Assembly (NCBI GenBank): GCA_051294905.1
Contig: CM119373.1
Span: 1,924,001 to 1,988,000 of the forward strand
From: Botryllus schlosseri
Taxonomy: Eukaryota
Length of the DNA stretch: 64,000 bases
Direction: 5' to 3'
A model generated the notes under the pieces. It had not been told where the DNA came from. It worked only from the letters and a program-made list of their open reading frames with translations, and searched no databases. The position numbers and the translations under genes are program-made. Of the stretch, positions 5,361 through 61,312 are shown piece by piece; the first letter of the stretch is position 1, and each line of letters opens with the position of its first letter.

Positions 5361-5391
5361 GTGTAAAGCAATGGCCTAATATCTTTTTTAG

Positions 5392-12868: not shown

Positions 12869-13036
12869 GTTACCGCAGTGGTGATTGAGGATACATACTT
12901 GGAGCACGATACTATTGTCGGGTATTTGGATATTTTACGGCTATGTCACAGCGGTGTTATCAGCCTGTGCCGATGTAATCTTACCAAGGAAAAACTACGA
13001 ATGATTGCGCAAGACTTCCAGATGGTTGACATCCAG
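12869..13036 (+). CDS. NLR gene, 168-bp LRR exon 1 (VTAVVIEDTY...VISLCRCNLTKEKL...DIQ)
   Basis: tctag| acceptor and CAG|gtattg donor; 56 codons, phase 0-0; two degenerate RI-like LRRs; aligns with the later 168-bp exons (CxLTxxKL, terminal IQ). Confidence 0.85.
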
Positions 13037-14008
13037 GTATTGGTCATTACATCTGTAGTTTTACACACATACGGTATATTATACAGTGGCATTCAGCTGA
13101 TTATAATTTGTTTGAATTTATCCCCAACAATCACCGGAGGCTCGCCAGACGGATCTTACAACCAATTCGGTATTGAATAAGCTCGAATGTATTCACGTTG
13201 CAAATAATGAGCTATTGAGCACTTACAAAACATGTAAATAAATGGCTGTCCGATACAGTTAAAGCACTCGGATGTTCTCTCAGATACAAACGAATAGCGC
13301 TGAAAGCATAACCTTAGATTTCCCCATTTTGTTGTTTTTCTTCCGGGGTTACAGTAGTGCAGGGATAGGAGGGCGAGAGTTTGTGTTCCATTTGCTGAGG
13401 TTGAACCATTGACATTAGAGCAAACGTTCCCAAATCACTTGTAATTGAGTATTGAAGTTAGCGGATAACATGGGATCGCAGAACGTAAGACTTGATCTAC
13501 AACATGCCGACATCATGCATTCTGAGGGTAGGCCGCCACATTGTTGCTTAATGTATGGTCGCTAAATTTTATTAACACGCATATTTGGGTTGCGCTATGA
13601 ATTTGAGCAACACTGTATACCAAAAAAGAGATTAACGGAATATTGCGACGTAGAAAAAAACAAATCAGTATGAATCCGTGTATGGTGTGTCACCAGCAGT
13701 CGAGCAGTATACACTAAATCTTTTTTCTAGCCACGCTAATTCCAACGGTCCACAAAATGTGGAAATATTCTGTAATTTCTAGTTTTTGAGCTATAGTGGA
13801 AAATTTAACTACTGGAGTTCTTTCAAAGTTAAAAGAATATTATAATTATACGTTTTACCGCCAAAAATGTCATAAAAAGTTCAATTTTAGGCCAATTTTC
13901 TATTTTTTGAGGTAAAAAATAATCACCCTAATTACAAAATCCATAGCCGGATGATCACCGCAAATAAACGCATAAAGTTTTATTGATGCTGCGATTCTTA
14001 TTCTATAG

Positions 14009-14176
14009 GTATCGAGTTTGGCAATCATCGATGCAGGAATGTCATCAGGTGCTTATCACGACATCCCATTTACACTCAAGTCCATGGGCTGCAAAAACAT
14101 TCAATTCCAAGGCTGCGATTTGACGAGAGCGAAACTATCTGAATTCTGCACTGGTTGTAACGACAACGACCTATAT
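14009..14176 (+). CDS. NLR gene, 168-bp LRR exon 2 (VSSLAIIDAGM...CKNIQFQGCDLTRAKL...DLY)
   Basis: ctatag| acceptor and |gtaagc donor; 56 codons, phase 0-0; same LxIxD...CKxLxLxxCxLTxxKL pattern. Confidence 0.87.
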
Positions 14177-16873: not shown

Positions 16874-16964
16874 TGCTCAACATCAACGTATAGCAACACT
16901 CATACGCCGAATACATTGATGCTCAACATCAACGTACAGCAACACTCATACGCCGAATACATTG
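16874..16964. repeat. 46-bp tandem duplication
   Basis: tgctcaacatcaacgta(t/c)agcaacactcatacgccgaatacattg occurs twice head-to-tail. Confidence 0.9.
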
Positions 16965-17360
16965 CCCAGTCTGGCCTAGACCATTAAGGCGTAAGCTTAT
17001 ATTCCCTTGTACGTCGTCGTCGAAATGTTGGCAAAGCGGCGGAAGATATTGTTGTTAGTGCCACTGATTTAGCGCTCCATAACTCTACTCAACAGACAAA
17101 TCATCGCATTTTTGCCAATTCCATTGTTCGGGAATAAAGTCGTTGCTAGAATATAAACACCATGATCCGTGATATGATTTAATGCACTATTAAGTATATA
17201 TGATCGATACTAGAATATTCACGTGAAAAATAAGGACATGTGGAAAAATTTTGAACCGAGTTGACTGATGGTCCGGCTCGTGACAGATTTGAAGGTTAAA
17301 ATCCGACCCGCGTCGCCATTTGAGTTTGACAACCCTGCTCCAAGCTGAATCGCCATAACA

Positions 17361-17545
17361 AGATAGCATAATGGTATGATCCACGGCTGCAACACCAATT
17401 GGTTGCGGGTTCGAGTCTGACCCAGGTCCACTCCAGAATTTCCAGCCAAGCGTTACAGATTTATCCAGGGCTAGGCTCCTCTTCATTCACCAGATCGGCG
17501 GTAGTTGTTTCTTAAAAAAGCCTAGAAGTGGACCGTGCTATGAGT
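17361..17545 (+). mobile_element. tRNA-derived SINE, 5' part (paralogues near 25483, 36201, 47190, 55819; related copy near 53288)
   Basis: A-box-like TAGCATAATGGT and B-box GGTTCGAGTC (17408-17417), followed by a body (ctaggctcctc...agaagtggaccgtgct) that is shared with copies ending in (CAAA)n tails near 25130, 35840, 46830, 51995 and 62970. Confidence 0.65.
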
Positions 17546-18332
17546 GCTCTCAATATTGCAGGCCCTGGGTGTTTTCTGCACAGCGATCAATGTATATTTT
17601 TAAAATTAAATGCCTCTTGGCTCTGCATTCAGGACAGTTTATTTTACATGCAATCGAAGTTTAAATCATTGGTAAAACAGAGTATATATTGCACGACGTT
17701 AAAAGCTGGTGATTTTGTTTATTATAACATTTGAGATTCTATATAGTTGCTGAGTGACGTATAGACCGAGTGAGTGTCTCACTTCGATTTCCCAAAAGTG
17801 TTTATGAATACTGGCTGAGGCCGTACAAACCCTCTTACTGTCGTTATTGAGTGATCACTAGTAAATTAGTAATCATAAAAACTGCATGAAGGTATGCTTT
17901 AAAGCTGCCAAACAATGTAGACCTGCCGTCTCCGTGGATTCAATCGGACAGATTTACTTGCCGACATCCTGATGGCGACCACTTTTTGAAGGAGGAATAG
18001 ATTGTTGTTATTCCAGTTAACAGAATTCAACGTCGAAATCAGCCAACACATATTTTACTCAGAGGACCGAGTTTCCAAATAATGTCAGCCAAATAGCTCA
18101 TAGGTAATTTTACAAATTTCTGTTGTGTTTGAGTGTATTCGATCAAATGAAATCTAGAACATTCTAATCGACTCGAAGATCAATTCTCGTTTCGGAATCG
18201 TATCTTCCGAGCCCTCGATTTCGCCCAGTCACAGTTGCAAGATTATGGTATTTTAAAGTCTACTGACAGTAATTTCGATTTCATTTTCGAAGCATAATAA
18301 AAGTCATTTTATCCGATATTTGATCATTTTAG

Positions 18333-18500
18333 TTGCAAAAGCTCGGAATCGTCGACAACTCAATGAAAGAAGATGGATATGAAATACTCGTTCACATTCT
18401 GAAGCGGTCAGATTGCAAGGAATTGCAACTCCAAGATTGTTGTCTCACCAAGACTAAGTTGCAAGGAGTATTGAACGGATGTCGGGATCAAAATATCCAG
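18333..18500 (+). CDS. NLR gene, duplicated 168-bp LRR exon copy A
   Basis: atcattttag|TTG...ATCCAG|gtgcgt. Encodes LQKLGIVDNSMKEDGYEILVHILKRSDCKELQLQDCCLTKTKLQGVLNGCRDQNIQ. Confidence 0.88.
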
Positions 18501-19299
18501 GTGCGTCATCATAAACAATCCGTAATATTCAAGAAGACATGTCATCTTACGATTCGAAATTGTTCGTCATCCTACTTCGCCTCAAATCCATGTAATATAC
18601 CATTCACCATTCACCATTTATTCTATCGTTTACCAATACTCGTCGAGTATTGGTAAACTAGTTGACAATATGCAACAGTATTTTAATAATCTGGAATATG
18701 TAGGCTATTGTGCTGCATCCGGAAAATTTCGCGAGCCTTATCTTTCATTACGTGTCGCTATATATCTGGCCGCAAAACCATGTATTCCATGAAGCTCATT
18801 GTAAAATGACAGCATGTAACGAAGTTTATTTAAGCGCTGTTAACGAAACGACCGGCGGACGGTCATATTATCAGTATATATTATAGGATAATAGCCCACG
18901 TTAGAAATCTAACCACCAACGCCGACTGAGTAACGAAAATCAATTTAGTGTTTGATGTTTGACTCAAATGCACTCGGGCTAATTTTCAAATTTTTGACTA
19001 CCCTGCGGAACACGACGTCAATATGAGTATTCAATGTATGTTCAAGTATGTCGTATTTGACGAGGTGAAATTGTACTATTGGCCGGAAATGCAGATTGAG
19101 ATTCCGAAAATATAGTGAACTTATGATTTACTACTTATTTTACCAATTTACGCGTGGCACCAATGAAAAACACATTCACAAATATTTGACTAAAATTGTC
19201 GTTCTACTAAGCAGGGAGTACGCATCATTTGTCGCAATTATGAGAAATAGGCACCATGGCCGAATCTAGGTTTGGGGTCCCATATTGATAAGTGTAGGC

Positions 19300-20853
19300 C
19301 CGGGGTAGGCAAACCCCGGCACGCGTGCCATTTGTGCCACGCGAAATGATTTTTCATGGCATGCCAAATGATTTCACGGAAACGACATATTCATACCATG
19401 TTTTTGCAAAAAGTGAAACAGAAGTTTTCAAATCGTGAAATGCTCGTAGGCGATCCAAAATTATTATTATTATTTCACATTTTACAGTGGTGCTTCTCGC
19501 CTTTTTCAGGCTATGTGCACCACGACACGAATATTTGTAATGTTCATAAGTCTTTGTCTTTGTGTTAATCTTGGGGACGACTTCTTCATTCTTTCGCACA
19601 TCCAGAGGTCAGTCTCTCTCGCACCAATGCGTCCCCGTCGAGGTCTTTGCTGCCGACTTCTAGGACGGCTCACTTTCAATCTGGGCTTTTTAATGCACTG
19701 CAACTGCAGTGAGATCGGCAATGGGTAGCCCAGAGAAACCTCCGACACATAGAGCCTGATGTGTTAATTATGCTGTGGGAACCCCCAATAAATAGATAAA
19801 TATATATGTTGTATTTATAAAATGTTTTAAAAATCTGTGCATAGTGTACAAAAATGAGTCAACCGTGTTAGCAGTTGTGAAAGAACATCAACCGAACATC
19901 GTTTGAAAACGTTTGGATTCTTTAGTCTAGGAGTGTTATTCACTGTGTAGCCTGCGGGAGTGCAACTACTGAACCGGCATTACGACGCTGGGCATCTTCA
20001 CGCTATATAATACATGACCTAGATATAGAGTTTCGGACAATATCCGACCATGCGACTAACAGGCGGTCTATGCGTTGCCAAAGTGATTGGCGGCGATAAA
20101 ACCTTCAAACAAAATAGCCGCTGCATCATGGACAAAACGTTAGACATTGATATGTCCATTGGCAAGGCGCCGAAGTGACCAGCGCCGAATGGCCAGCGCC
20201 CGCACCTGCAGCTTAAGCCGCACGTATCAAATGAGATCTGCCAAGGAAAATAATAAGCCCCGTGTCCAAATGCGAATCGTGTTCGTCTTTCGGGCGTAGA
20301 GTCTGGTGTGCACGCGATTCAATATCTTGAGCAACGCCAATCCTTACCGCTTGACTGCGACCTTTGCCGACAAATATAGTGTCAGACCGACCTTAATGTG
20401 ACGCCAAACCGATTTGAATGAGACTGTGGGGAGGGGGGAAACATTTTTCATCATCATCAGACCATATCATCGTAGCTACACTGATTGGCCCGTCATTTAT
20501 GATTTATTGGATACGGTAACCAACATAGTGGACTTGGAAACGATCCAATCAACCACACAAGATCGATCATTGCCCAATGGCGCGACTGAAAATAAATTAT
20601 GTAAATATCACGTGAGCCTACATATAAGCGATAGGTCGGGTACGGTAGTGTCCAAAATTCAATCCCTTCAAGACCAATCAAGAATTTCTGGCGTGACGAA
20701 TGGCGTTGCCGGTTGCAGAAAAACAGTTTGTGGTATTCCTTGCTGCTTGAAACGTTAAATATTAATAAATTCCATGTTCGGCACGCAAGCTGGTGAAAAA
20801 TTGAAATTTTTTGACATTTTGGCACGCTGCACATAAAAGGTTGCCGGCACTTG
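19300..20853. mobile_element. hAT-type non-autonomous element, copy in unit A
   Basis: Ends CCGGGGTAGGCAAAC / GGTTGCCGGCACTTG; degenerate TSD GTGTAGGC / ATATAGGC; paralogous to 28295-29798. Confidence 0.8.
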
Positions 20854-23800
20854 ATATAGGCTATTGATCATGTCATTGCCCTAGTCAAAATAAAACAGCG
20901 TTGGATTTAACTTACTGGTGTCGCAGAGGGGGAGCGTGCCATTGCGGTATTCGCTATCTTTAATCGGCCATAAAGCTATGGATGAAGGGATCAAAGATGC
21001 AACTGACTGCACATCTAGGGAGCAAGAAAATGCTAAATGTTGTTATAACAACTTGCGTCGATAGCGAAATACCATGTCACGAACGTATCATCTATTACGA
21101 TCCCCTGGTCACGCGAATAATAATTTTTGCATTCATGGTTATAATCATGTCACGACATTCCAAGCTACTCGGAGTCGACTCGAGTCATTTTCATCTTGTC
21201 ACCGAGTCATTCCGAGTGATTCAGCGAAAGGTCGCCTCTAACTCCAAGTCACAATTTTCATTCTCGAATCATATACGGTTCGTGTGTTACCATCATGATT
21301 AGGCTATTCTATGTAATAGCAGATCTTCCACCGCATAGTAGCGTATGAAAGTGATGCCATATAGCGAACTTTGATCAGTAGTTTTATGTTTTTAGGGTAA
21401 ATTTAAAGGGAATGATAACTTTTCATAGGTGACAAAAAGAAATGTTGCACTGAGCTGTATCCAAGTATCGCCTCCTTGTAAAATTGTATCGTGGCCGAGC
21501 AAAATGTCCTCGTGGGTCGCGTGTTCTGGACCCAGGCTTAGATCATGGGGTTACCACTATCAAAACTACTGCTGGTGTAAATGGAGAAAAGAATTTCTAG
21601 CTTTGACATGACGTTACTGGATTATTGCAAATTAATCGCAAAATATGCGGCGATATGAAATTTACGATTTTTGATCGAAAAGTGAGCATTTAACCCCACG
21701 CATGTCCGTTCTCTAATGTTGCTTGTAAAATGCAAATTATGACGGACGGAGCTATGTCGAACAATAGCAGAGAAATCTAGCGCACATGCAGTGGGACATA
21801 ATGCTTATTCTCTATGCGGAATGCGGTCACTAAATGTCGCTAAAAAGTCGCTGGTAATAACAACATGTCAATCCCTACGAGCAAATTAGCGTGCTTTTTG
21901 TGCTATCAAAAAACATCATGTCGATCCCAAAAAAACTCCTAAAACCGAGCCTAACCTAACCGAACTAATCTCCATGCTAATATACTTTCATCATTTCTGG
22001 TCTTCAATATTATTCACGACACATCGCACCGTAGATATCTTGACGATTGCGTTCTGCAACAAACTATAACACTGGTCAACAAAATAAAATAAAAAGAATT
22101 CGGCAGAAAATCTAGGACCTGTTATAGGGTTTTCAAGGTTGCCGATGACGAATATTAAACTTGTTGTGCCAGATTGACTTGCCCATCAGACTTGAGTCTT
22201 TTCTCTGGGTCATTTGCTGTCATCATTCAGGAGTTCAGCTCTCTCTTCGTCTGAGCATTTCAATACGCTGTATTTACAGCGGATCGAATCGCATAGAAAC
22301 ATGGCAGCGCCGAGACTCGGACCACCAACCAAGTGTTTAACCAACTGCGCCACTCGCTTCCCCGTGAGATAGATATATTCCTATTCTAATGACGCGGTCA
22401 CATGTTAACGTAGCTTATATAGACGTGGTGGCATACTAGCGTTACAACTATAGGGATTGCTCGCATGATTCTAACAATAATGAAGACGTGATAGTTCAGT
22501 CGTAACAAATGATAGATGGTGTTCTCTATTCTAACTCTAATCCTTTTAATGCTGTCTGTTGATCCGTGCGTAACCTCAATAATTCCGACTTTCAGCTGCA
22601 TCGGATTGTTCGCACGTTTCCATACCGCATTTTCACACCTACAGAATAGTCTGCCGTTCACTGTCGCAACAAGAACCACAATTACACACATTTATACATT
22701 CATTGCATTTATTACTCTGAAATCAAACTATTCACAAAACTACGTACAATCCTATCAATAATCACCAGAATAATTCAGGTATTCCTTGGTTGAAAATCCT
22801 TGCGCTCTTTTTGTCAAGAATGCTATTGTAGGATCTTCGCCCACATCTGATGTTTTACACTGTAACTGTTTCCCAGTCACGGAAAATTCATCTGGTTCCA
22901 TGAATTCGATTATCTAAGGTTTTAGTGGTCCGAAGCCTAGTGACTCATGAAAATAAGTCTGCCGCCCCCCTATTTTAAGGGGGTAGTAAAAAACAATGGG
23001 TAAGTGGTCGAAGTCCGCCTTCGGGTTGGCAATTCACTATTAGACCACTCGACAAATTCACGGTATCATTTTTATGCTGTTTTCGGGATCAAATCCAGGT
23101 TGTTATAACAACCATCGGGTAAGGACTACGAGCTCACGGCATTTGGTTCGAGATCGATGGACATATCTATAATTCTCCTCTGCGATTGGCAATACGGTGA
23201 ATAAAATTGTATTGGTTTCGTTTTATTGCTTTGTGTGACCACTTAATGAGATGAGAATACGGTAGAGATTTGCTCACATTACATTTAGTGCTGCTCTTAG
23301 CTTCAACATGAATGCGGGTAACAACCCTCAGCAGTATCACCCTGTATGATACGATGAAGAAATATTCTGACGACATAATTTGTGAGCTTTCAAATACAAG
23401 TATATTTAGTAACTCGTTTTTACCAAAAAGCTGCAAAACACCGTTAATGTACAAAGGACAACATTCTCGAAAGTTGTTCAGTAGTTTACGATTTAGGCAC
23501 GCAGTGCGCTTCAGGATAAAATATCTAGTTAAAAATATTTTATGGAAAACAACCCGAGCTATCAGTAAACATATCAGTTTATTATTATTTTCATCATTTC
23601 AAAACACCACAAAACTGTGATACCATGAAAGGATAGGAAGATGTCAAAACTACTTCGAGTAGTTAGCGTGAAAGGAGTGTTATAACGGGGAATTAGCAAT
23701 CCAAAAGTACGCCAAATTCATTTTACATAATTTGAAATAAACCACTGCATTCATGGAAGCATGGGTTGGTTGGATATTTCGCGATGAGCACAACGAAAAA

Positions 23801-26508
23801 CGTTGTGATTTGATAGATTTTCTCGAATGTTAGTTTGCAATGAGAAGTCAGGAATAATCATATGTACTTACTACACAATATGCTGCGAGACCATTTTCGT
23901 CAGCGCCCCAACCGCCTCCAGAGCCAAGTGCCCCCTATTTTGCCTCCTGAGCGTTTCCATCCCCTAAAAATCCAATTAGCCCCATGGGAGGCGCTGGAGA
24001 CAAGGTTGAGAACCACTGATCTAAATCATCAAGAACTATATTGGTAAAATTACGTCTCCTCCAGCTTCATAAACTGCTCCTCTTCGACAGTACAATGCTC
24101 CCGGACGCATAGAAGAGTAGCGTATGGCCAGTGTTGCTGAATACAAATTCTGTAGGCGGAATTGGGTTCTGAGCTGTCTTAAGAATTCGTCAGAAACAAC
24201 ATATGTAAATGCGCGTGGCCGCGTTCGTGTAGTTTTTGCACTATCACGAAGCAACTAACGATCCAGATTAGACGTTTAAATTCTAACCTTATCCAAGTCT
24301 ATATCATGGTCCCATGCTCAATCTTAGATATTTTTGTACTCAGCGCTCCTTCGGAAATTGTTTCAATCATCACATCCATCTCTGATCTGAACATATAAAT
24401 TGTCATTACCATGTTTTCATCTGCTATCACCCTAATCTAATTTTTGAATTGTTCTTCTGCTCTAATTTTAATCCTAATCTAATTTATAAAATGTTTCTAT
24501 GCTCCAATTTAATTATAATCTAATTTATGAATTGTTTCTATACCCTAATTTTCATTCTAATCCAATTTATTGTTTTCCTGAAAATGCCTATTTGACCGCG
24601 GCGTGTTGCAGCGATTCTCTCTCGCACACGGCAATCCCGAGCGAAGCCGCCATCGTATTACTTACACCAGGGGTCGCCAACTCAAAACGGGTCGTGGGTC
24701 ACTTTTCAAAGTTCGTAGCGGCCGCGGGCCGCATAAATTCAATATCGATATAAAGTAGGCAACCACGTTTTAAAACTCTATGTCAGTACAACGCTGTGCT
24801 ACCTAACATAGGCGATGGGCATAGTGACCACAAAAGTAACATTTTATTAAAGGAATAAAAATAGAACAGAATATCACCGTCATCAATTTCCTTTTATTTT
24901 GAACCCTTAGCTGTGCACGATACCTTGAAACGCTTTTTTGGGCTAGCGAGATACGTTACTAGATGAAAAGCTAAAAAAATTCTAGTTGTCCCAGTCTGCC
25001 GTGTAAGCGGCGTCTTATAAAAGCCTATGAGTGGGCCGTGCTGCAGGTCAGCAGCTACGAAATTTAAATGAAGCACATTGGCCTGGTGTAAATGACCATA
25101 GTAGTCGACAAACACCATGAATACCTCAAATCAAACAAACAAGCGACTAAAAAGGGAGCATAAAAATACGCCAACCTAATCGTCACTGATTCAGCGCTCC
25201 ATAACTGTATTCAACAGGCAAAGCATCGCATTTTTGCCATTTCCATTGTTCGCGAATAAAGTCGTTGCTAGAATATAAACACCATGATCCGTGATATGAT
25301 CTAATGTACTATCATGTGTATATGATCGACACTAAAATATTCAAGTGAAAAATAAAGACACGTGGCGAAATTTTGAACTGAGTTGTCTGATGGTCCGGCC
25401 CGTGACAAATTTGAAGGCTTGAATCCGACCCGCGTCACGATTTGAGTTTGACAACCCTGCTCCAAGCTGAATCGCCATGACGAGATAGCATAATGGTACG
25501 ATCCACGGCTGCAACACCAATTTGTTGCGGGTTCCAGTCTGACCGAGGTCGACTCCAGAATCCCCAGCCAAGTGTTATGGATTTATTCAAGGCTAGGCTC
25601 CTATTCATTCACAAGCTCGGTGGTAGTGGTTTCTTTGAAAAGCCTAGAAGTGGACCGTGCTATGGGTGCTCTCAATATTGCCGGCCCTGAGTATTTTCTG
25701 CACAGCGATCAATGTATATTTTTAAAATTAAATGCGTCTTGGCTTTGCATTCAGGACAGTTTGTTCTACATGCAATAGAAATTTAAATCATTGAAAAATC
25801 AGAGTATATATTGCACGACATTAAAAGCTGGTGATTTTGTCTATTATAACATTTGAGCTTCGATATAGTTGCAGAGTGACGTAAAGACCGAGTGAGTGTC
25901 CCAATTCTATTTCCCAAAAGTGTTTATGAGTACTGGCTGAGTGCCGTACAAACCCTATAATACTGTCGTTATTGAGTGATCACTATCAAATTAGTAATCA
26001 TAAAAACTGCATGTAGGTATGCTTTAAAGCTGCCAAACACTGTAGACCTGCCGTCTCCGTGGATTCAATCGGACAGATTTACATGCCGATATCCTAATGG
26101 CGACAGCATTTTGAAAGAGGCAGAGATTGCCATCATTCCCGTCATCAGAATTCTACGTCGAAATCGGCCCCACACATTTGTTACTCAGAAGACCGAGTTT
26201 CAAATATTGCCAGGGAACTAGCTCGTAGGTAATTTTACAAATTTCTGTTGTGTTCTAGTGTATCCGATCAAATGAAATCTAGAACATTCTATTCGACTCG
26301 AGGATCAATTCTCGATTTGGAATCGCGTCTTCCGAGCCCTCGATGTCGCCCAGCCACCATTGCAATATTATTTTACTTGAAATGATGCCGAAGCAATCGT
26401 AGCAGAGTAATGTGATACTAATAGTATTTTACAGTTTAATGACAGGAATTTCAATTTCATTTTCGAAGGCTAATGAAAGTAATGTTATACGATATTTTAT
26501 CATTTTAG

Positions 26509-49228: not shown

Positions 49229-50177
49229 CGATTACCAGAGAACCCGTCCCTTGGGGAACCCGTCCCTACCAACTCGGCCCTCGGAGAACCCGGCCCTTGG
49301 AGAACCCGGCCCTCGGGAAATTTTGCATATCAAGCACGCGTGGTCTACTTGTTGTCGTATTTACGGTGTTTTTCGACTACTCTGGACCTCGGAGAATGCG
49401 GCCCGCGAATAATTTTGTATTAAAAATGCAATAAATGTGAAGCCGGCCCTCGGGAAATATTGTATTCACCGGCAACCCTAATATCCCACCTCCACCAACC
49501 CTAATATCCCACCCCCGGCAACCCTAATATCCTAACCCTAACCCTAATATCCTCCCCCAACCCTAATATCCCCCTCCCCCAACCCTAATATCCCCCTCCC
49601 CCAACCCTAATATCCCACCTCCGGCAACCCTAATATCCCACCTCCACCAACCATAATATCCCACCCCCGGCAACCCTAATATCCCACCCCCGGCAACCCT
49701 AATATCCCACCCCCGGCAACCCTAATATCCCACCCCGGCAACCCTAATATCCCATCCCCGGCAACCCTAATATCCCACCCCCGGCAACCCTAATATCCCA
49801 CGCATGCCCTGACCTCCTTACAAGACCGACAAATCAGTTGATAATAACATTATTACTTTATTAATTCATAATAATACTTGTGAATACACTTAATTTCTAA
49901 ATTTCCCGAGGAATATTACTTTTCATTCAGTGTGCATGCCTCTTATTTACTTCGCCTATGCTAAGGTGGGTGTCTGATCTTAATGGCTACTCCAAGTTGT
50001 TTCGACACCCTCCTATCTTTTCATTGTATCGCAGTCTTGTGATGTTTTGAAACGATGAAAATATTAATAAACCTGACTGACTGACTTCACCGAGGGCCGG
50101 GTTCTCCAAGGGCCGGGTTCTCCGAGGGCCGAGTTGGTAGGGACGGGTTCTCCAAGGGACGGGTTCTCCGGCAACCG
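49229..50177. mobile_element. Unclassified TIR element with an internal AACCCTAA-containing minisatellite
   Basis: ~85-bp internally repetitive TIRs (GAGAACCCG(G/T)CCCT units); TATTTA duplicated at 49223-49228 and 50178-50183; internal ~23-bp repeat aaccctaatatcccacccccggc at ~49470-49800. Confidence 0.75.
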
Positions 50178-52111
50178 TATTTACGGTGACCGATTCTTTA
50201 ATCATTTATTACAATTGTGCCCACCGTAAATACTATTTTATGCAAATCCAAATTTGTCGACATCAATCACTACGCTACGGCTGGTTTGAATGGAGCCAAA
50301 TTTGGTGGACATCGTTTCTATCGACAACCTTACAATTTCATGGGTGAACAGAAAATTTTGAATTTTTTTTTAATAATTTTTAAATAATAAATAAAAAAAC
50401 TTTCTTCTCCTGTAGCAATGCGGCTACTGGTTGGAATTGAACCAAATTTGGTGTGTAGGCTTCAATTCGGTAATCTAACAATTTTATCAAGTAGCCAGTA
50501 GAATTTGAAAGAAAAAGTCATTTTTGAACACCCCTACTGTACGGTGTACAGACATTTGCTATTCCCATGCGCATAAGATGAACTATGATTTGATATTAAC
50601 GGGTGTGAGTATACACCATGGCACAAGAGACCTGAACGTACCTCATACTTATACCGCGGTATAAATCGAGTGCAATATTTTAATCCAAATTTTGCATGCA
50701 CTTAGGATATATGACCTCGATCTCATTATGACTCAGGTTTTGTTTTCATGTACCACCCTTTTCGGCCCCTTAGGTGCAAATACACATTATTTTCGCTAAA
50801 AGTGCACTCGAATAAAATATGCATGTTACGCATAAAACGCGTAGTATATTATGCCCATTAGAAATCGGTGTCTACTCTACCAGTTGTAAACCCAAATGTA
50901 CGAACGGGCAGTGCATTCATCGATTCGATATCTCTAAAATTCCATTGTGAGTCAACAAACCTGACTAAAATACGAGGTCACTGCAAATTGGTCGATTGTC
51001 GCTTCATTGCGAAACATTCATTATTTTCAATGAAACATTCTTTCTTTGACGATATAATCAGTGTTTTTCCAAATCGTAACGACCGTAAAAGCATTTCAGC
51101 ACTATTACACGCGGCATTTTTCATTTCATCGCCGATATCCACTAATTGCATATTAATATGAAATTCGCTAAAATATTCATTTATGCGAATGAGAATCTAG
51201 AGTTAGTGATCATTATGCAAAGGTGAATTGCAAAATATGGTCGGAAGTTTCATCGCCCTTATTCTTGAATAGGCAACACAACTGTGAGAAGTCCATCCGT
51301 CTGAAGTATAATTATGCGGTCGTTTTCACAATAAAATATTTTAAATTGATAATAATACAAACATCAAGTCAAGTGTTTAGATGTGCAAATCTGAATTCAT
51401 TAGCTATGAAAATTCTGTAACCGAAAATATATAAAAAGAAACGATATTTATCATGTTCCCAGCTATATTCGGATGAACTCTCGCAACTTTCGTATCTGAT
51501 ATCTTAAATTGGCTCATTAAACAAACGCTCTGTACGAATTCACATTCATATGACGATAATCAACATATGCGACTCGTAGCTTACATTGTCGTAAACTTGC
51601 TTACCTCAACCAGGCCTCTTGTATATAATTTAAATCAAACGAATATCGTTCATACGTTTATAATTGTATATCGTTGATAAGTAGGTGGGTAGGGTATTGA
51701 ACTATATCAATTTTAAACATTCTGAGGTTTCGTATGTTGTCCTCTATTTTGGCTGATATTTAAAGACTGGCTACATCGCCATACTTGCGTAGTTGAGCAG
51801 TTCTGCGTATGCGTGAGCGATACAGCGCCTCTTCATTCCATTACTCCTCGCCACTTAATCCGCGTAAGCCGTGACTTGCGCAAAGTCTAGAAGTGGGCCG
51901 TGCTATAAGTCGGCAGTTGACGAATAAATATGAAGAATATTGGCCTGGTGTGAATGGCCGTAGTAGTTGACAAACACCATGAATATCTCAAAACGAACAA
52001 ACAAACTATTTATTCGTTCGTCGATTCCGAATAAATGGGTACTTCATCTGTATTTAAAACAGTTAGCAAAATGTAATGACTTTGAATCATGTCCAGTACG
52101 TTGAAATTTCA

Positions 52112-52356
52112 ACTTGACTTGACTAGTGACTTGACTAGTGACTTGACTCGTGACTTGACTCGTGACTTGACTTGACTTGACTTGACTTGACTTGACTTGA
52201 CTTGACTTGACTTGACTTGACTTGACTTGACTTGACTTGACTTGACTTGACTTGACTTGACTTGACTTGACTTGACTTGACTTGACTTGACTTGACTTGA
52301 CTTGACTTGACTTGACTTGACTTGACTTGACTTGACTTGACTTGACTTGACTTGAC
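52112..52356. repeat. (ACTTG)n microsatellite
   Basis: About 48 pentamer units; a shorter paralogue lies at 63089-63147. Confidence 0.97.
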
Positions 52357-54564
52357 CCGAGTCACCTTTGAAAATCAAGTGACTTGACTTGACTCGAGTC
52401 AAAATGAATTGGCAACAAAACGTTTCCATGAATCTCGACGAAGTCACAAAATCAATGTAAATACAGGCCAATGGCACACAAAGGCAGACAAACGTTTACA
52501 GGGGATCCAAATATAAATAAGCAGTGGGACAGTATTGAATGCTTACACATCGGAATTGTATACTATATTGTTCCACATAATTCCATCGTTAATAATTCAA
52601 CGGTATGAAGTGTATGCTCGAGCAGTATAGCTAACCCGTCGCTTCCACAATTGCATGTCTTAAATTGATATTTATCGAAACTTCAAGTCAAAAATATGGA
52701 TGTGCGAACCTGAATCTAGTAGCTATGAAATTCTAAATCCGATATTGATCGAATGAACCCTGCAAGATTGATATCTGAAATCGGTTCATCAAACAAACGG
52801 TATGTGCGAATTCACAATCGTAATATCGAGAATCAACATCTGTGACTTTTCAGTGTCTTCTGATGGGAGTGCAATTCTTCAAAAAATATCACAAACCATA
52901 ACGTATTCTTTATTGCAGTCTTACCATAGCGGTACCCTATATAAAAAGATTGATGTGGCAATTATACAATTCATTTTTTATGTCGAAACAATAATACACC
53001 GTGTCGACCGGCACTGATATCTTAATGTCTAATATAATGAAAATCGAAACCACTAAGAATAATATTGTTAAAATTTCGTCTCCACCAGCTTCAGAAACTG
53101 CCCATCTTCGACAGTACACTACTCCCGGGTTCTTATTATGACGTGGCGGAAATTGCAAAAGCCACCAAATGCGCCGAAGTGTGTGTACCGAACCCAATTC
53201 CAACGTCCACGTTTACGGTTTAATCTCTTGTATTCTTACCAACGCACACTCGGGGTCAACATCCAGTTACGACTAAAAAGAGTGGTGGGATAGCGTAGTG
53301 GTGTAATCCACTGCTGCAACACCTATGGGTTACTGGTGCGAGTGCGACCAATTTCGACTCTAGAATTCCTAATTAAGTGTTGGAGGTTTAGCTAGGCTCC
53401 TCCTCGCCATCTCATACGCGTAACAGACTTGGACAACTAGATAATTCTAGTTGTCTAATTTCACTAAATTAGAGCGAAATAGCAGTAATCGAATTCTAAG
53501 CTAATTTATAAAATTTTCTATGCTCCAATTCTAATTCTAATTCTGATTCTAATCTAAATTGAGAAAAGTTCTTATACTCTAATTTTAATTCTAATCTAAT
53601 TCATTGTTTTCCTGAAAATGCCTATTTGACTGCGGCATGTTGCCGCGAGTCCCTCTCGTACAGGGAAGTCCAGAGCCAAGACGCCATCGCATTACTTGCA
53701 CCGTACAGAAATAGTAGTTATTGTGCGACGAATAAGAGCCATACTGGCATAGTAGCTTGTTTGTTGGTTTTCTTGAACAATTGCGAGGCTTATTGAATAA
53801 GCATGTTATATGCGCCATGATAAGAAATGTTGCAATGTTCATTGATCTTTGCCTTATGAACTCTTTTCGGACTACTTCCAGTCACACACCCATTCATCAT
53901 TGATATCCATCTCGTTTGCATACGACCTCGTCAGTGTCTTTTACCGACGATTTTCGAAACTCGACTTTAATTGATCAATCTGGGCTTTTCTTACGGCACT
54001 GCATACGCAGTGACGTCAGCTACTAACGATTCGATATTCGGGCAAGCCAGACATGTTGCTAGATGAAAGACTATCTCATCCTAAAGATTGGCTGTGGGGA
54101 CACCCTAGCCCGTTTTCCAAGCGTTTCGGCGTCGCGTGCATTCTACGTCATGGCAATATGCCTATTCATACCAGCTGACTCTCCGTCGATGGAATGCTGA
54201 TGCCTCCGTTGAAGCTATTTTCGCTATAGCGAGGAATAGTGTTGTTCAGGACAGACGAATAAGTTTATTTAAAACTACAACAATAATAATTTGAAACTGA
54301 AATCATTTTCGCATTTCAAAATGCTTTATTCGCGTTCTTCCAAATTAACAGATCAGATCGCCGGCCGCAAAATACAACCTCGCGGGCCGCCTGTTGATGG
54401 CCCCTGGTATTGTGCAAAACGAGCAAAGCTTGATATACGGACGTTAACCAATCTCTTTGTTATGAGACTCCATTGTGATTTGATATGAACTGAACTTTTT
54501 ACTGCATTTATTTCTCATTCAAATTTTCATTCGATTTCCAAGTTTTTCCGAATTCAAATTCTGA

Positions 54565-55300
54565 TGCTAATTATAATCTAATTTCGAAAAATTGTATAGC
54601 TCTAATTCTAATTCTAATCTAATTTGGAAAAAGCTGTGTAGATGTAATTCTAATTCTATTATAATCTGGAAAAAAAGCTGTGTAGATTTAATTCTAATTT
54701 TAATATAATTTGGAAAATATGCATAGCTCTAATTATAATTCTAATATAATTTGGAAAAAGCTGTGTAGATCTAATTCTAATTCTAATCTAATTTGGAAAA
54801 AGCTGTGTAGATTTAATTCTAATTTCAATCTAATTTGGAAAAATTGTATAGCTCTAATTATAATTATAATCTAATTTGGAAAAAGCTGTGTATATCTAAT
54901 TCTAATTCTAATCTAATTTGGAAATAACTGTGTTGATCTAATTCTAATTCTATTCTAATCTGAAAAAAAGCTGTGTAGCTTTATTTCTAATTTGAATCTA
55001 ATTTGAAAAAATTGTATAGCTCAAATTATAATTATAATCTAATTTGGAAAAAGCTGTGTAGATCTAATTCTAATTCTAATCTAATTTGAAAATAACTGTG
55101 TTGATCTAATTCTAATTCTATTCTAATCTGAAAAAAAGCTGTTTAGCATTATTTCTAATTTGAATCTAATTTGGAAAAATTGTATAGATCTAATTCTAAT
55201 TCTAATCTAATTTGGAAAAAGCTGTGTAGATCTAATTCTAATTCTAATCTAATTTGGAAATAACTGTATAGCTCTAATTCTAATTCTAATATAATTTGTA
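54565..55300. repeat. ~42-bp AT-rich minisatellite
   Basis: Unit tctaattctaattctaatctaatttggaaaaagctgtgtaga, roughly 17 copies; only ~3 copies at the paralogous sites ~35570-35680 and ~46345-46460. Confidence 0.9.
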
Positions 55301-56793
55301 AAAGCTTAAAAATTCTTAGTTGTCCAAGTAAGCGGTGTCATATAAAAGCATGAGTGGGCCTTGCAGCAAGTCAGCAGCTACGGATTTTAAATGAAGCACA
55401 TTGGCCCGGTGTAAATGACCATAGTATTCGACAAATCCCAAGATTACCTCAAAACAAACAAACAAGCGACTAAAAAGGGAGCATAAAAATACGCCAACTT
55501 CTATCGTCGTTACTGCCACTGATTTAGCGATCCATAACTGTACTCAACAGGCAAATCATCGCATTTTTGCCAATTTCATTGTTCGCGAATAAAGTCGTTG
55601 CTAGAATATAAACCCTATGATCCGTGATATGTTCTAATGTACTATTATGTATGTATATAATGATAGATAATAAAGTATTCAAGTGAAAATACGGACATGT
55701 GACAAAATCTTGAAATGAGTTGACTGATGGTCCGGCCTGTGAGAGATTTGAAGGTTTGAATCCGACTCGCGTCGCCTTTTCAGATGCACAATCCTGCTCT
55801 AAGCTGAATCGCCATGACGAGATAGCATAATGGTATGATCCACGGCTGTAACACCAATTGGTTGCGGGTTCGATGCTGACCGAGGTCGACTCCCGAATTC
55901 CCAGCCAAGTGTTACAGATTTATCTAGGGCTATGCTCCTATTTATTCACCAGATCAGCGGTAGTGGTTTCTTAAAAAAGCCTAGAAGTGGATCGTGCTAT
56001 GAGTGCTCTCAATTTCGCAGGCCCTGAGTATCTTCTGCACAGCGATCAGTGTATATTTTTATAATTGAATGCCTCTTGGCTTTGCATTCAGGACAGTTTG
56101 TTTTACATGCAATCGAAATTTGAATCATTGGTAAAACAGAGTATATATTGCACGACATTAATATTGCACACATTGTCTATTATAATATTTGAGATTCTAT
56201 ATAGTTGCTGAGTGACGTAAAGACCGAGTGAGTGTCTCACTTCGATTTCCCAAAAGTGTTTATGAATACTGGCTGAGTGCCGTAGAAACCCTATAGTACT
56301 GTCTTTATTGAGTGATCATTAGTAAATTAGTAATCATAAAAACTGCATAACGGTATGCTTTAAAGTTGCCAAACACAGTAGACCAGCCGTCTCCGTGGAT
56401 TCAATCGGACAGATTTACTTGCCGACATCCTGATGGCGACCACTTTTTGAAGGAGGAATAGATTGCTATTATTCCAGTTAACAGAATTCAACGTCGAAAT
56501 CAGCCAACACATATTTTACTCAGAGGACCGAGTTTCCAAATAATGTCAGCCAAATAGCTCATAGGTAATTTTACAAATTTCTGTTGTGTTTGAGTGTATG
56601 CGATCAAATGAAATCTAGACTATTCTACTCGACTCGAAGATCAATTCTCGTTTCGAAATCGTATCTTCCGAGCCCTCGATTTCGCCCAGTCACAGTTGCA
56701 AGATTATGGTATTTTAAAGTCTACTGACAGTAATTTCGATTTCATTTTCGAAGCATAATAAAAGTCATTTTATCCGATATTTGATCATTTTAG

Positions 56794-56961
56794 TTGCAAC
56801 AGCTCGGAATCGTCGACAACTCAATGAAAGAAGATGGATATGAAATACTCGTTCACATTCTGAAGCTGTCAGATTGCAAGGAATTGGTGCTCGAAAATTG
56901 TTGTCTCACCAAGACTAAGTTGCAAGGAGTGTTGAACGGATGTCGGGATCAAAATATCCAG
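56794..56961 (+). CDS. NLR gene, duplicated 168-bp LRR exon copy D
   Basis: Same splice sites. Encodes LQQLGIVDNSMKEDGYEILVHILKLSDCKELVLENCCLTKTKLQGVLNGCRDQNIQ. Confidence 0.88.
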
Positions 56962-58561
56962 GTGCGTCACCATGAACAATCCGTAATATCCAAGAAGACA
57001 TGTCATCTTACGATTCGAAATTGTTCGTCATCCTACTTCGCCTCAAATCCAGACATGGGGTAATCGCGATTAGTAATCGTAATCGATTACGACGATTACA
57101 GCATTTTGAAGTAATCGTAATCGCAATCGATTACATTCGGAAAAAATCCGAAGTAATCGTAATCGTAATCGACTACTTCCCATATCTAATCGATTTGTTT
57201 GTGAAAGAACGATTACTTTTTGTTTATACAAGGACTATGACATAAACTGAATATTCGTGAACAGGAATGAGATAATATACCACGTTAGCGTTAGCACAAA
57301 CGTCTGTTTTCAAACGCCACTGACTCATTATTACGTCAGAAGTATTAGCTCCGCTCGTCATTGCGTAACAAGTATCCACACATAGTAAACAGACATGCGA
57401 TGGACATTGTAGTGTGATTGTATGAACAGTGAACACCTCCCGTGGTGTATATCAGGTTATCAATACACTACAGAAGCCGCTACCTCGCAGCAGGATATTG
57501 ATCACCACTCTGCCTGTAGTTTCAAATAGTAACTTATGTATTAATGTTTGGTTGTGCTTAGTTAAACGCAGTTTACCATTGCTGCTTGGCGAGCAGGAGG
57601 CCTACGTACGCACGTGCACCTGACGAAGATTCGGAATTTTGTACTCGTCGAATAAGACATTGCAGTTTCCACAACGAAGCATTACAAACAAACAGCTGCT
57701 GATATATCTCATAACCGAGCCAAGCTTAGCCGTTTCTCGTAACAGCAGCTCGCTGTATATGTATTAAGTTGAAGGCAGAATTTTTATGTTAACCATATCT
57801 TATTCTCATATAACTACTTGAAACGGGCGTCAATCGTTATTTCACAGTTCGTTACTTAGCATTTGGACCTGCCGCCATAACCATCCGCTTATATAGCCTG
57901 ACATGTTAGCGTGGGTTGTAGCTAGAATCAGCAATTCAGCCAAAACAGCAATTCCCCTGTCCAACCGTTGGTCAATTTTCAAAAGTGAATATTTCGTCAA
58001 TAATATTGGTAATTGCGTTATATTACTATTCATTTATAACCTCTCTGAGCCCCGAGTGTCAGATTTACCTGTAAAGCTGGGGCACGTAATTCATATTCAT
58101 AGCATCTGGTATGTTGTTGTAATTACTGTATGTTGTTAATTCGCGACCTCCAGTCCGTTGTATAATCACAAGATATTGTACTCGCCAAAACGTAGCAGAC
58201 TAAAAGAATATCTTTTGTGAGACGCACACACAAATTGTCATGGCTTTATTCTTTTGTGGATGCGCCGGGTGACATTTGCATTGCGGGCCCAGATTGGAAA
58301 GACAGGAGTTATTAGTCCCGCCCACTCAGCGCGGCTATTGACAATGGACGAATACCCTAAGTTTCGGCCAAGGTATTTCTTTGGTATCACATCCCGTGGA
58401 GTTGCGTGTTGGCCGAAACTGCATATGTGTTTTGGTGTGTTGTAGGATCGTGGCGCGGTAATGACCGGCTACGAAATGCCTGTTCCCTTAAAATATAGCC
58501 TATGTATGTTTTTTCTTGAGGGGAAGGAGGTATGCATTTCAAACCCAGCTATCTACTGGAG

Positions 58562-59504
58562 CAGGGGTCATCAACTGTTTTGAAACAAAAAACTACTTCT
58601 TGTGTAGTGTGTACTGATTATTGCGACGACCGACGGGTTACCTCGTACTCCCATCGTTTATCCATGTTCAGTTGGATTTCTTCACTTAGAGTAAGACAAT
58701 CAGAGCACTGGGCCGGGTTTCCGCCCCTTATCAAGAAAAAAAAAACGCTCACTCGCAGGGACTCACACCAGCTCCTCCAAGCTCAGTTGCGTTGCTGCAG
58801 TGCGCGCAGAAGCGCCGATCTCCGCGTCTAGACTCGGGAAAATTAACTATATAGATTCCCGTTGAGCCGCCGCGTGGGCGAACACAAGCAATGCCCCGAG
58901 CGACTGCGTTCGTATGTTCCTTGGCGTCGGCCGACCCATGTTCAACTGCTGCTCATATGAAACGAGCTTCAACTATCAAATCTCTCATTTGGATATTTGC
59001 TACAGCGCAGGGGTGGCCATACGAACGGGGTGGGGGGGGGGGGGGCTTGGCGAGACTTACCGGGGGCCCCCTATAAGAATCTCTCCGTAACTTATGGGGG
59101 GCTTCGCCCCCCAGACCCCTCTTTCGCATCTGTTATTATTATCTATCTATCAAGGTTTGGCCAGGTGCTGGATTCGGCCATGTCTATTTTTTCATGTGTG
59201 CAAAGATACACGACATTAAAACTAAGTAATTCTACCGTATGCAGAGACGTGATGATTATCGGGATATGGTACTTTTCTAACAAATGCAAGATTTGATGAT
59301 GATTGACACATCTATACGGAATCCTATTCTTGCCTTACACGGATTTCCATGTTTATTCGTTATTATCCTTGAAAAAAGCGCATAACTCAAATAGGGGAGC
59401 CCTTCGGCCAGCCCCCCTGGCGACCGCCCACCTTGCCCACCCCAAAAGCCACCACTACTACAGCGACGGCGGGCGACTCATTTGGTCCGCGTTGGTGACC
59501 CCTG
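58562..59504. mobile_element. Nested hAT-type MITE
   Basis: Ends CAGGGGTCATCAAC / GTTGGTGACCCCTG; TSD TACTGGAG / TACTAGAG. Confidence 0.82.
59008..59457. mobile_element. Doubly nested hAT-type MITE
   Basis: Ends CAGGGGTGGC / GCCACCACTA; perfect TSD CTACAGCG (59000-59007, 59458-59465). Confidence 0.78.
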
Positions 59505-61144
59505 TACTAGAGATATTTGAATCGCAAAGCTCGAAAAACATTTACAAGAATTAATTAAATTCTCGAAAATGCTCTATAATATATGTTGGTTTACGAAATA
59601 CTTTTGAGTCCCCTTCGAGCACGCACCCACTCTATTAAGGAATTTTGGGCGCGGCATGTAAAGACCTGGCAATAAGGCAAATCGTTGGATGCGATAAATC
59701 ATCCACTATAAAGTTGGGCAATTGATATATTATGACGTAATAAGCAAATGACGCATGATGAAGAAAGTTGATATCTCATTAAGCCTTTTCATCGCAGTCC
59801 TTGTATTGTCTTCCCATATATCATTTAAGATTATAGTCCTAAGCTAAACAAATGTAATCGTGAGTAATCGTGATTACTTTTTCAATGTAATCGTAATCGT
59901 AATCGACTACTTCCTGATTTTGCTGTAATCGTAATCGTAATCGTAATCGCGTGCTTCCGAAGTAATCGTAATCGCAATCGATTACATTCATAAAGTAATC
60001 ACCCCATGTCTGCTCAAATCCATGCAGCACAAAATCGTTCATCATTTATTCTATCGTTTACCAATACTCGGCGGAGGTAATTCGAATACCGCAGGGGTTT
60101 AGTATTTTGCAACACAGATTACTTTGGACATTTTTAAAATTGTTGACGACGCGACAGCGTAGATATCATCAATATAGGAATATTCATGACATAAATCTAG
60201 CCGAAAAGGCCGAAAGAGTGATTTATCTAGGGCTAGGCTCCTCTTCATGCACCAGATCGGTGGGAGCGGTTTCTTAGAAAAAGCCTAGAAGTGGACCGTG
60301 CTATGAGTGCTCTCAATATTGCAGGCCCTGAGCATTTTCTGCACATCGATCAATATATATTTTTAAAATTAAATGGCTCTTGGCTTTGCATTCAGGACAT
60401 TTGTTTTACATGAAATCGAAGTTTGAATCATTGGTAACTCAGAGTATATATTGCACGACATTAAAAGCTGGTGATTTTGTCTATTATAACATTTGAGATT
60501 CTATATAGTTTCTGAGTGACGTAAAAACCGAGTGAGTGTTTGACTTCGATTTCCCAAAAGTGTTTATGAATACTGGCTGAGTGCCGTACAAACCCTAATA
60601 CTGTCGTTATTGAGTGATCACTAGTAAATTAGTAATCCTAAAACCACATATAGATATGCTTTAAAGCTGCCAAACACAGCAGACCTGCCGTCTCCTTGGA
60701 TTCAATCGGACAGATTACATGCCGATATCCTAATGGCGACAACATTTTGTAAGAGGCAAAGATTGCTATCATTCCAGTCAACAGAATTCTACGTCGAAAT
60801 CGGCCCCACACATTTGTTACTCAGAAGACCGAGTTTTTAAATTTTGCCAGGCAACTAGCTCATAGGTCATTTTACAAACTTCTCTTGTGTTAGAGTGTAT
60901 TCGATCTAATGAAATCTGGAACATTCTACTCGACTCGAGGATCAATTCTCGATTCGGAATCGTATCTTCGGAGCCTCGATGTCGCCAACCCACCATTGAA
61001 ATATTATTTTACTTGAAATGATGGCGGAGCTATCGTAGCAGAGTAATGTGATATTAATAGTATTTTACAGTTTAATGACAGCAATTTCAATTTCATTTTC
61101 GAAGTCTAATGAAAGTAATGTTATACGATATTTTATCATTTTAG

Positions 61145-61312
61145 TTGCAAAAGCTCGTTATCACCGACAATTCAATGAATGAAGATGGATATGAAATACT
61201 CGTTCACATTCTGAAGCTGACAAATTGCAAGAGATTGGTGCTCCGAAATTGTTGTCTCACCACGACTAAATTGCAAGGAGTATTGGACGGATGTCGGGAT
61301 CAAAATATCCAG
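61145..61312 (+). CDS. NLR gene, duplicated 168-bp LRR exon copy E
   Basis: Same splice sites. Encodes LQKLVITDNSMNEDGYEILVHILKLTNCKRLVLRNCCLTTTKLQGVLDGCRDQNIQ. Confidence 0.88.

Follow-up and report, generated by a model that had tools for sequence, protein, structure and literature searches.

A probable very large NACHT-LRR gene of Botryllus schlosseri with an array of predicted two-LRR exons that appears to be remodelled by recombination

We analysed a window of 64,000 nt from Botryllus schlosseri (assembly GCA_051294905.1, contig CM119373.1, here called C3, positions 1,924,001 to 1,988,000 of the + strand). The window probably holds the 5' quarter of one very large gene for a NOD-like receptor (NLR), in which a NACHT domain is followed by leucine-rich repeats (LRRs). 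Our preferred reading, to which we give a probability of about 0.7, is that of a single large NACHT-LRR gene: a NACHT domain and a link segment precede about 20 cassettes of two LRRs each, the array of cassettes is being remodelled and the binding face of the repeats is diversifying.

The NACHT exon would be spliced to a 323-nt link exon and then to a long series of 168-bp exons. This series would consist of X1, X2, 15 cassettes that resemble exon A of the window (A-like cassettes), two Z-like exons among them and exon Z, 10 kb after the last cassette. The A-like array would have grown, and would still be remodelled, by in-register unequal crossing-over or gene conversion between units of several kilobases. 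Partners in exchange would be units of the window gene itself as well as those of two NACHT genes located upstream. Selection would keep every cassette spliceable and foldable, while the solvent-facing residues of the beta-strands would change freely or adaptively. The product would probably act inside the cell as a sensor whose recognition surface diversifies rapidly. The sequence data themselves demonstrate the layout of the parts, the in-frame logic of the exons, the intact state of the cassettes, the pattern of selection and the mosaic units, whereas membership of every cassette in one transcript, the LRR fold, ligand binding and a role in immunity are inferences. The evidence supports the structural reading as well as germline diversification by unequal crossing-over.

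Anatomy of the gene and extent of the array

A script that scans for 168-nt intervals between AG and GT with an open phase-0 frame recovers exactly seven exons in the window. All seven are on the + strand, contain no stop and have phase 0-0. Hence, any subset of them keeps the reading frame. Exons A to E have a common acceptor context (...TTTTAG) and a common donor (GTGCGT), and their nucleotide identity ranges from 88.1 to 96.4%. Each lies in its own tandem direct unit; self-BLAST and a repeat finder delimit these units, with sizes of 8.1, 10.7, 11.0 and 4.3 kb or more. The units diverge by 7-16%, vary in length from 4.3 to 11 kb and carry private insertions and deletions (Table 1). Unit 4 has only about 288 bp (47675-47963) where its neighbours have an exon-bearing segment of about 1.3-1.5 kb: homology to units 2 and 3 ends at 47675 and restarts at 47963.

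Upstream of these exons lies the only open reading frame (ORF) of at least 150 amino acids (aa) in the 64 kb, at 5367-6818 on the + strand. It matches the Pfam family NACHT (PF05729) with E=3e-13 and 50.4 bits (cut-off 26.7), and a P-loop motif, GxxGxGKS/T, is visible. A winged-helix match (NOD2_WH) stays at 20.9 bits, under its cut-off of 23.1; the Styela homologues P0004, P0006, P0007 and P0013 have similarly weak or near-threshold NOD2_WH matches. The nearest named NACHT homologues are uncharacterised proteins of Styela clava (XP_077976001, XP_039248824 and others), at 27-34% identity and E down to 2e-56. Alignments with five Styela clava proteins bridge positions 6522-6647 by a gap of about 42-50 residues; those with four unnamed homologous proteins end at 6524. 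This segment is probably a small in-frame intron.

The link exon corresponds to residues 874-931 of Styela P0007 (tblastn), which directly follow the NACHT match of that protein. It is entered in phase 1 and left in phase 0, so that the frame of the NACHT exon carries over into the 168-bp exons. No predicted junction from NACHT to LRRs breaks the reading frame, and the Styela relatives carry both parts in one protein. In-frame continuity holds over five independent junctions and was a built-in criterion in none of the searches, which supports a single gene.

Each 168-bp exon is predicted to encode two 28-residue LRRs of the ribonuclease-inhibitor type. When a profile of the seven exons was compared with all PDB sequences, every one of the 22 matches (E <= 10) was an LRR protein. 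The best matches were designed LRRs of the ribonuclease-inhibitor type (1.2e-9 and 2.4e-4), and the others included NLRP14 (0.004-0.006), ribonuclease inhibitors (0.025-1), NLRP1, NLRP3 and RanGAP1. An AlphaFold2 model of exon A, based on an alignment of 31 cassettes, has strands at residues 3-7 and 30-34 and helices at 13-26 and 40-48, with a mean predicted local distance difference test score of 75. The model thus consists of two 28-residue strand-helix units. The exon borders fall at the start of the beta-strand motif.

These results bear out most of what the original prediction had said about the window: seven 168-bp exons of phase 0-0 with AG and GT downstream of a NACHT domain, modules of two LRRs (in agreement with Pfam for NACHT, and with the PDB profile and AlphaFold2 for the LRRs), freedom to include any subset in frame, and five paralogues in multi-kb duplicated units, by whose duplication the array had been proposed to grow. 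The extent of the array, on the other hand, had been put too small, as it runs about 165 kb past the window.

Beyond the 3' end of the window we read 50 kb directly; the remainder is known through search matches. A genome-wide search with the NACHT exon yields 107 matches at E <= 1e-10. Three NACHT exons lie in the neighbourhood, all on the + strand, at 1,422,162, 1,696,710 and 1,929,367 of C3, the last being that of the window gene (next NACHT exon on C3 after the window gene: 5.03 Mb). The first two are 85% and 75% identical in protein to the window exon. Between 1.487 and 2.152 Mb there are 27 A-like cassettes, all on the + strand: five behind the first NACHT exon, seven behind the second and 15 in the window gene. 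The 15 span 210 kb with no second NACHT among them. After exon E they are found at 1,991,679, 2,002,881, 2,033,580, 2,042,801, 2,056,786, 2,064,297, 2,085,584, 2,103,033, 2,126,092 and 2,152,361.

At 2,162,870, 10 kb past the last cassette, follows Z, a different 168-bp LRR exon with AG and GT. Gene 1, the first of the three, has a counterpart of Z that is 90% identical and lies 8.7 kb beyond its own last cassette. Two Z-like matches (78% identical) lie inside the array of the window gene, at 2,017,929 and 2,118,082; both are sequence matches with unchecked splice sites. Fifteen A-like cassettes and two to three further LRR exons without a second NACHT imply a gene of at least 233 kb. The simplest reading would then be a single gene of this length that carries about 20 two-LRR exons and hence about 40 LRRs, and such a size matches the Styela relatives P0004 and P0006. 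The introns of the array measure 4-30 kb and are rich in repeats. On the 3' side the following 41 kb show no further LRR exon of this kind, and a gene on the minus strand appears there. Its ORFs of 300 and 272 aa, one of them with a C2H2 zinc-finger-like motif, lie at C3:2,184,875-2,189,260 (-) (L034); they mark the neighbouring gene and thereby the 3' limit of the NLR gene.

Similar arrays occur elsewhere in the genome. Exons resembling X2 have 143 genomic matches, none with a stop, and form such arrays behind other NACHT exons on C1, C7 and C12. The architecture is therefore a family trait and not a single oddity. In distant NACHT paralogues on the same contig (C3:6,050,645/6,051,421 and 7,186,394/7,187,010/7,187,780) the LRR cassettes are 0.6-0.8 kb apart. 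Hence, giant introns are specific to some subfamilies.

A tandem arrangement of this kind could be an artefact of assembly, with haplotypes or collapsed repeats laid out one after another. Some units are indeed 98-99% alike, which is within the allelic range of polymorphic animals, and no contig of the independent DNA sample X5 spans a unit. The units in the window, however, differ by far more than this, in length and private indels as well as in sequence, and a like architecture stands behind NACHT exons on three other contigs. Read depth in X5 also speaks against an artefact. A 3,916-nt contig of this run covers 11095-15010 with 12 differences at a depth of 40, whereas contigs just upstream of exon A have depths of 669 and 681, about 17 times the single-copy depth. 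This agrees with a cassette present in many copies and carries no information on the order of the units. We regard an artefact as the least probable of the alternatives considered here. Two joints in X5 connect units 1 and 2 in register and omit 8,123 and 8,994 bases; a reading of them as deletion alleles was rejected, as their shorter side has only 22-24 letters.

Table 1. Positions of gene parts, duplicated units and a satellite in the window (position 1 is the first nucleotide of the window)
Feature	Positions	Strand	Remarks
NACHT exon, first part	5392..6521	+	inside the stop-to-stop ORF 5367-6818
Likely small in-frame intron	6522..6647	+	126 nt, GT..AG, inside the NACHT ORF
NACHT-associated helical exon, second part	6648..6810	+	donor CAG/GTATGT at 6810/6811, leaves phase 1
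177-bp satellite	7549..9147	.	9 copies, 96% identity, intron after the NACHT exon
Link exon	11826..12148	+	323 nt, phase 1 in, phase 0 out
LRR exon X1	12869..13036	+	168 bp, phase 0-0, unique, 25% identical to A
LRR exon X2	14009..14176	+	168 bp, phase 0-0, 34% identical to A
Unit 1 with cassette exon A (18333-18500)	17045..24965	+	self-BLAST, repeat finder
Unit 2 with cassette exon B (26509-26676)	24965..35674	+	self-BLAST, repeat finder
Unit 3 with cassette exon C (37228-37395)	35674..46735	+	self-BLAST, repeat finder
Unit 4, cassette exon lost	46735..55300	+	self-BLAST, repeat finder
Unit 5 with cassette exon D (56794-56961)	55300..60220	+	self-BLAST, repeat finder
Unit 6 with cassette exon E (61145-61312)	60220..64000	+	array goes on past the window end

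Selection on the cassettes and exchange between them

All 27 A-like cassettes are open and have AG and GT. Their length is exactly 168 bp in 26 cases; the remaining cassette has 162 bp because of an in-frame deletion of 6 bp. Over all pairs, the identity of the exons averages 90.7% and the number of indel events 0.07. The adjacent flanks of 168 nt reach 80.7% and 1.8 indel events per pair upstream, and 75.2% and 3.1 downstream (n=27 throughout). Conservation among the 27 copies is thus much higher in the exon than in the sequence beside it, a pattern beyond chance for the array.

Within the exon the changes are distributed unevenly. Parsimony counts of substitutions were made on a 29-cassette tree, which holds the 26 of 168 bp and, from a related locus at 33 Mb, three more; it leaves out the 162-bp cassette. 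Ten codons, the x positions of the two LxxLxLxx motifs (2, 3, 5, 7, 8, 29, 30, 32, 34 and 35), were chosen beforehand. At these predicted beta-strand positions there are 73 non-synonymous and 12 synonymous changes, giving a ratio omega of about 1.2, a value that comes from parsimony counts on a recombination-prone tree and is not demonstrably greater than 1. The other 46 codons have 60.5 non-synonymous and 42.5 synonymous changes (omega 0.38). Non-synonymous changes are enriched at the x codons (Fisher p=4.5e-5).

In the predicted strands the variable residues 3, 5, 7 and 30, 32, 34 alternate with the conserved residues L4, I6 and L31, L33. Such alternation is the pattern expected for solvent-facing residues of the concave sheet. 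The concave face binds the ligand in known LRR receptors. Taken together, the selection pattern resembles that of a functional, diversifying LRR sensor, and is not proof of positive selection.

A more sceptical view would be that only the first few LRR exons are used and that the A-like copies downstream are pseudo-exons, either decaying or kept alike by conversion. It would account for the missing expression in the two RNA runs described below (X21 and X23), for a pairwise ratio of non-synonymous to synonymous differences (pN/pS) of 0.5-1.7 among exons A to E alone, for the unit that is already without an exon and for introns full of high-copy repeats, on which the depth in X5 rises to about 1.9e5. 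Decay does not easily explain why 27 of 27 copies are intact with their splice sites, why the exon is nearly free of indels and much better conserved than both flanks, and why the scaffold codons have an omega of 0.38. The conserved Z exon past the array, in gene 1 and in gene 3 (the window gene), is a further point against it. We therefore consider pseudo-exons very unlikely.

The units themselves are mosaics. Pairwise identity along them jumps between about 85% and 99-100%. For units A and C, for example, identity is 99-100% at a distance of 1.0-1.3 kb upstream of the exon, drops to 83-87% directly before it and is 94% at the exon, whereas the trend along A and D is the opposite. In the five-unit alignment a 51-bp deletion is common to A and D and absent in B, C and E, yet exon C is the nearest to exon A. 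Between L010 and L002 identity climbs from 62-66% to 97-99% across the unit.

Near-identity also extends across genes. L015, which lies behind the second NACHT exon, and L017, behind the third, match at 99.4% over 3,471 nt, despite a protein identity of 75% between the two NACHT exons. On the tree the cassettes of genes 2 and 3 are intermixed. Mosaic identity, near-identity between genes and a unit without its exon together argue for repeated in-register unequal crossing-over or gene conversion. The sequences indicate that such events act within and between the three arrays and that cassettes are gained and lost. Unequal crossing-over had been part of the original prediction; the mosaic units and the near-identical units of neighbouring genes fit it, and they fit gene conversion as well. 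Its suggestion that the receptor is diversifying is likewise consistent with the place of the variation, at predicted ligand-facing positions (omega about 1.2 vs 0.38).

The same mosaic identity, and the sharing of cassettes between several genes, would be expected if the cassettes were not exons at all but donors of gene conversion, in the germline or somatically, for an expressed copy, as the pseudo-V genes of birds or the lamprey variable lymphocyte receptors (VLRs) are. Hundreds of kilobases of like LRR modules beside a single NACHT exon would suit this idea too. A donor, however, needs no splice sites, and yet each of the 27 cassettes retains AG, GT and the tract that precedes the AG. All copies moreover have one orientation and the full register of two LRRs. 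A role as donors instead of exons is hence highly improbable in our view.

Expression and use of the cassettes

We compared the window positions 9300-29299 with reads of two RNA runs of the same species label, X21 and X23, of which about 6% and 13% of the reads were sampled (7.4 and 10.0 million records). A run of contigs, X7, is RNA by guess.

Several observations weigh against the reading of one large, expressed gene. In the partial reads of X21 and X23 the depth is zero on the link exon, X1, X2, A and B; the reads of both runs fell on intronic repeats only. X7 contributes one contig of 123 nt, which lies on 18378-18500, shows 5 differences and stops precisely at the exon A donor; the intron behind it is uncovered. 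As X7 has no contig for the link exon, X1 or X2, this one may stem from another cassette or gene. Of the two domain types expected, Pfam recognises NACHT but finds no LRR family in any of the single 56-residue exons. A Foldseek search of the PDB with the 56-residue model gives no match at E <= 0.001; its top match, a ribonuclease inhibitor at E=0.5, and the NLRP1 LRR structures among its top rows are not significant.

The ends of the gene add to these difficulties. On the 3' side no terminal exon or stop codon was identified. On the 5' side a likely acceptor AG at 5390-5391 implies an exon upstream of the NACHT exon, but no such exon or start codon was found in 1-5366. Pfam detects no effector domain (Death, CARD, PYD, DED) in six upstream ORFs, the N-termini of the Styela proteins have no tblastn match in 1-5366, and the Death domain PF00531 has zero matches on C3 from 1.4 to 2.2 Mb. 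An N-terminal effector exon may lie farther upstream, or may have diverged beyond detection. The long-range order of the array rests on a single assembly, and the reservations stated above for omega and for the two Z-like exons count on the same side.

Protein databases were of little help: exon D has no match to a spliced product among longer proteins, the link exon has none among proteins of similar length, and the NACHT exon has a single weak Styela match among longer proteins. No RNA run is listed for the NACHT exon.

Even as true exons, the cassettes need not all enter one transcript, as the single-gene reading would have it. They could be alternative exons, with one or a subset chosen per transcript by mutually exclusive or combinatorial splicing, so that one gene would yield many receptors. 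Equal length and phase 0-0 put every subset in frame, every cassette keeps an identical acceptor and donor, and the variation sits at predicted binding positions. Human NLRP3 skips one such modular LRR exon, according to Hoss et al. (2019, PMC6642158). The sampled reads of X21 and X23 include none on exons A and B to back the idea, though, and the cassettes are 4-30 kb apart, unlike known alternative-exon clusters.

Such clusters are compact. In arthropod Dscam they also use RNA pairing between docking and selector sequences. Between the intron after X2 and the flanks of A to E the reverse-complement k-mers comprise one 11-mer, with a shuffled maximum of 3. Complementarity of the docking and selector type, judged by exact k-mer matches only, is not above the shuffled controls. 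Constitutive inclusion does occur in relatives, since the Styela RefSeq proteins contain many tandem repeats. Alternative exons are thus unlikely, if less so than pseudo-exons or donors.

A related and bolder proposal is that the cassettes, at least 15 of them, are used combinatorially, or that they differ in number and order between individuals, so that each animal or cell would have recognition surfaces of its own. We think this doubtful, to the same degree as alternative splicing. If true, it would amount to a germline or splicing-based system of diversifying receptors in a chordate without adaptive immunity, possibly one for self/non-self discrimination.

The RNA reads on the intron of unit 1 deserve a separate description. 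They pile up on a tRNA-like stretch of about 32-70 nt at 22292-22363, and also at 19637-19747 and 28672. Thousands of reads in both X21 and X23 lie there, with loose ends on both sides, and a joint 19747>22292 has 99 reads in X21. One consensus of the loose ends resembles a library adaptor. The pile-up looks like a transcribed family of tRNA-derived short interspersed nuclear elements rather than a part of the NLR gene; Rfam is negative for it.

Comparison with known systems and further features of the locus

Tunicates are the sister group of vertebrates, and their NLR repertoires are poorly described. In open-access papers and preprints we found no description of ascidian NLR gene structure or of LRR-exon arrays. 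The locus combines the exon design of vertebrate NLRs with the evolutionary mode of fungal ones; the genome is tunicate-like, and the gene exceeds 230 kb.

Modular exons of two LRRs are already known from vertebrate NLRs. As described by Hoss et al. (2019, PMC6642158), human NLRs have exons of constant length that contain two LRRs of the ribonuclease-inhibitor type each, with the exon border at a fixed point of the repeat. The authors call these modular exons a precondition for alternative splicing and give 171 bp for all LRR exons of NLRP3. The vertebrate NLRP and NLRC genes and the ribonuclease inhibitor resemble our locus in that a large NACHT exon is followed by two-LRR exons that can be skipped in frame (PMC6642158). 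The NLRP exons have 171 bp (28+29 residues), whereas those of the locus have 168 bp (28+28). In contrast to the NLRP genes, the locus has about 20 exons, 15 of which are young paralogues, 88-99% alike and 4-30 kb apart in duplicated units, and it exchanges cassettes with neighbouring genes.

The NLR-B30.2 genes of zebrafish offer a second comparison. Howe et al. (2016, PMC4852459) describe a clustered, lineage-specific expansion in which each LRR module is one exon and the number of these exons is variable. In some of its groups the LRRs are extensively duplicated, and exon shuffling as well as gene conversion takes place (PMC4852459). NLR expansion, single-exon LRR modules, their variable number and gene conversion are thus common to both. 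The authors state that the LRRs are not particularly variable and place the variation in B30.2 (PMC4852459). At our locus, by contrast, the variation lies at the beta-strand positions of the LRRs, and a C-terminal domain was not found.

Closest in mechanism are the fungal genes het-d and het-e of the NWD family. According to Paoletti et al. (2007, PMC1805685), their highly conserved WD repeats vary in number and are swapped among paralogues as well as inside a gene, and a few surface positions of the repeats are under diversifying selection. With the locus they would share a receptor of the NACHT-type STAND class (signal transduction ATPases with numerous domains), the exchange of near-alike repeats in variable number and, probably, a few surface positions that diversify. 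The WD40 units are contiguous in one exon, whereas the LRR pairs of the locus lie on separate exons. Therefore, the recombining unit here consists of kilobases of intron and exon.

Among tunicates, the Styela NACHT proteins have the link segment and long arrays of 56/57-residue repeats in common with the locus. In the RefSeq proteins P0004 (1,650 aa) and P0006 (2,508 aa) long runs of such repeats, some of them near-identical, follow NACHT. Three of five Styela proteins have an N-terminal Death domain; none was found at the locus.

Arthropod Dscam1 and the lamprey VLRs are further systems in which, as here, many similar cassettes at one locus have the potential to diversify a recognition surface. 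The docking and selector pairing of Dscam was not found here by the exact k-mer test. Lamprey VLR cassettes are without splice sites and are copied somatically; the cassettes of the locus keep their splice sites (27 of 27).

The locus may thus represent an animal NLR family whose recognition domain evolves like that of fungal allorecognition NLRs, with many near-alike modules, exchange between paralogues and change focused on the binding face. It is a testable case for the diversification of innate receptors without somatic recombination. A view of 64 kb, or an annotation based on short reads, misses most of such genes.

Some further features accompany the array. Genome-wide there are 116 matches to the Death domain PF00531. 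Many are near-identical and occur as inverted pairs about 10-23 kb apart, for example C4:20656892(+)/20667428(-) and C12:17220158(-)/17243607(+), and one such pair lies inside an LRR-cassette array on C12. These pairs suggest a mobile element, or a palindromic duplication, that carries an ORF with a Death domain.

The satellite in the intron after the NACHT exon has short open frames in each unit and no ORF of at least 150 aa; it is noncoding. An Rfam scan of the window returned zero families.

In some young copies the frame stays open for up to 143 residues beyond the cassette donor. Read-through into this region as a conserved alternative C-terminus was considered and rejected, as the region is 75% alike with about 3 indel events per pair and is frame-shifted or truncated in A to E. 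An ORF of about 105-143 residues with a common stop recurs downstream of the donor in many units (L002:1862-2290 and equivalents in L003, L004 and L014; 37410-37826 and 61431-61745 in the window). Poorly conserved and Pfam-negative, it is probably a relic and not coding. Pfam gave nothing above cut-off for 13 intronic or read-through ORFs.

Two ORFs, at 47724-48062 (+) in the window and L033 near C3:2,176,902 (-), have a cysteine/tyrosine-rich motif and are Pfam-negative. The motif resembles the GIY-YIG nuclease domain found in Penelope-like retroelements.

An ACTTG microsatellite of 47 copies lies at 52112-52356, and again at 63089-63147, inside a duplicated segment. The two copies of this segment, 51578-53209 and 62555-64000, are 96-99% identical and about 10.8-11 kb apart. 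Their duplication is a second, younger layer near the end of the window.

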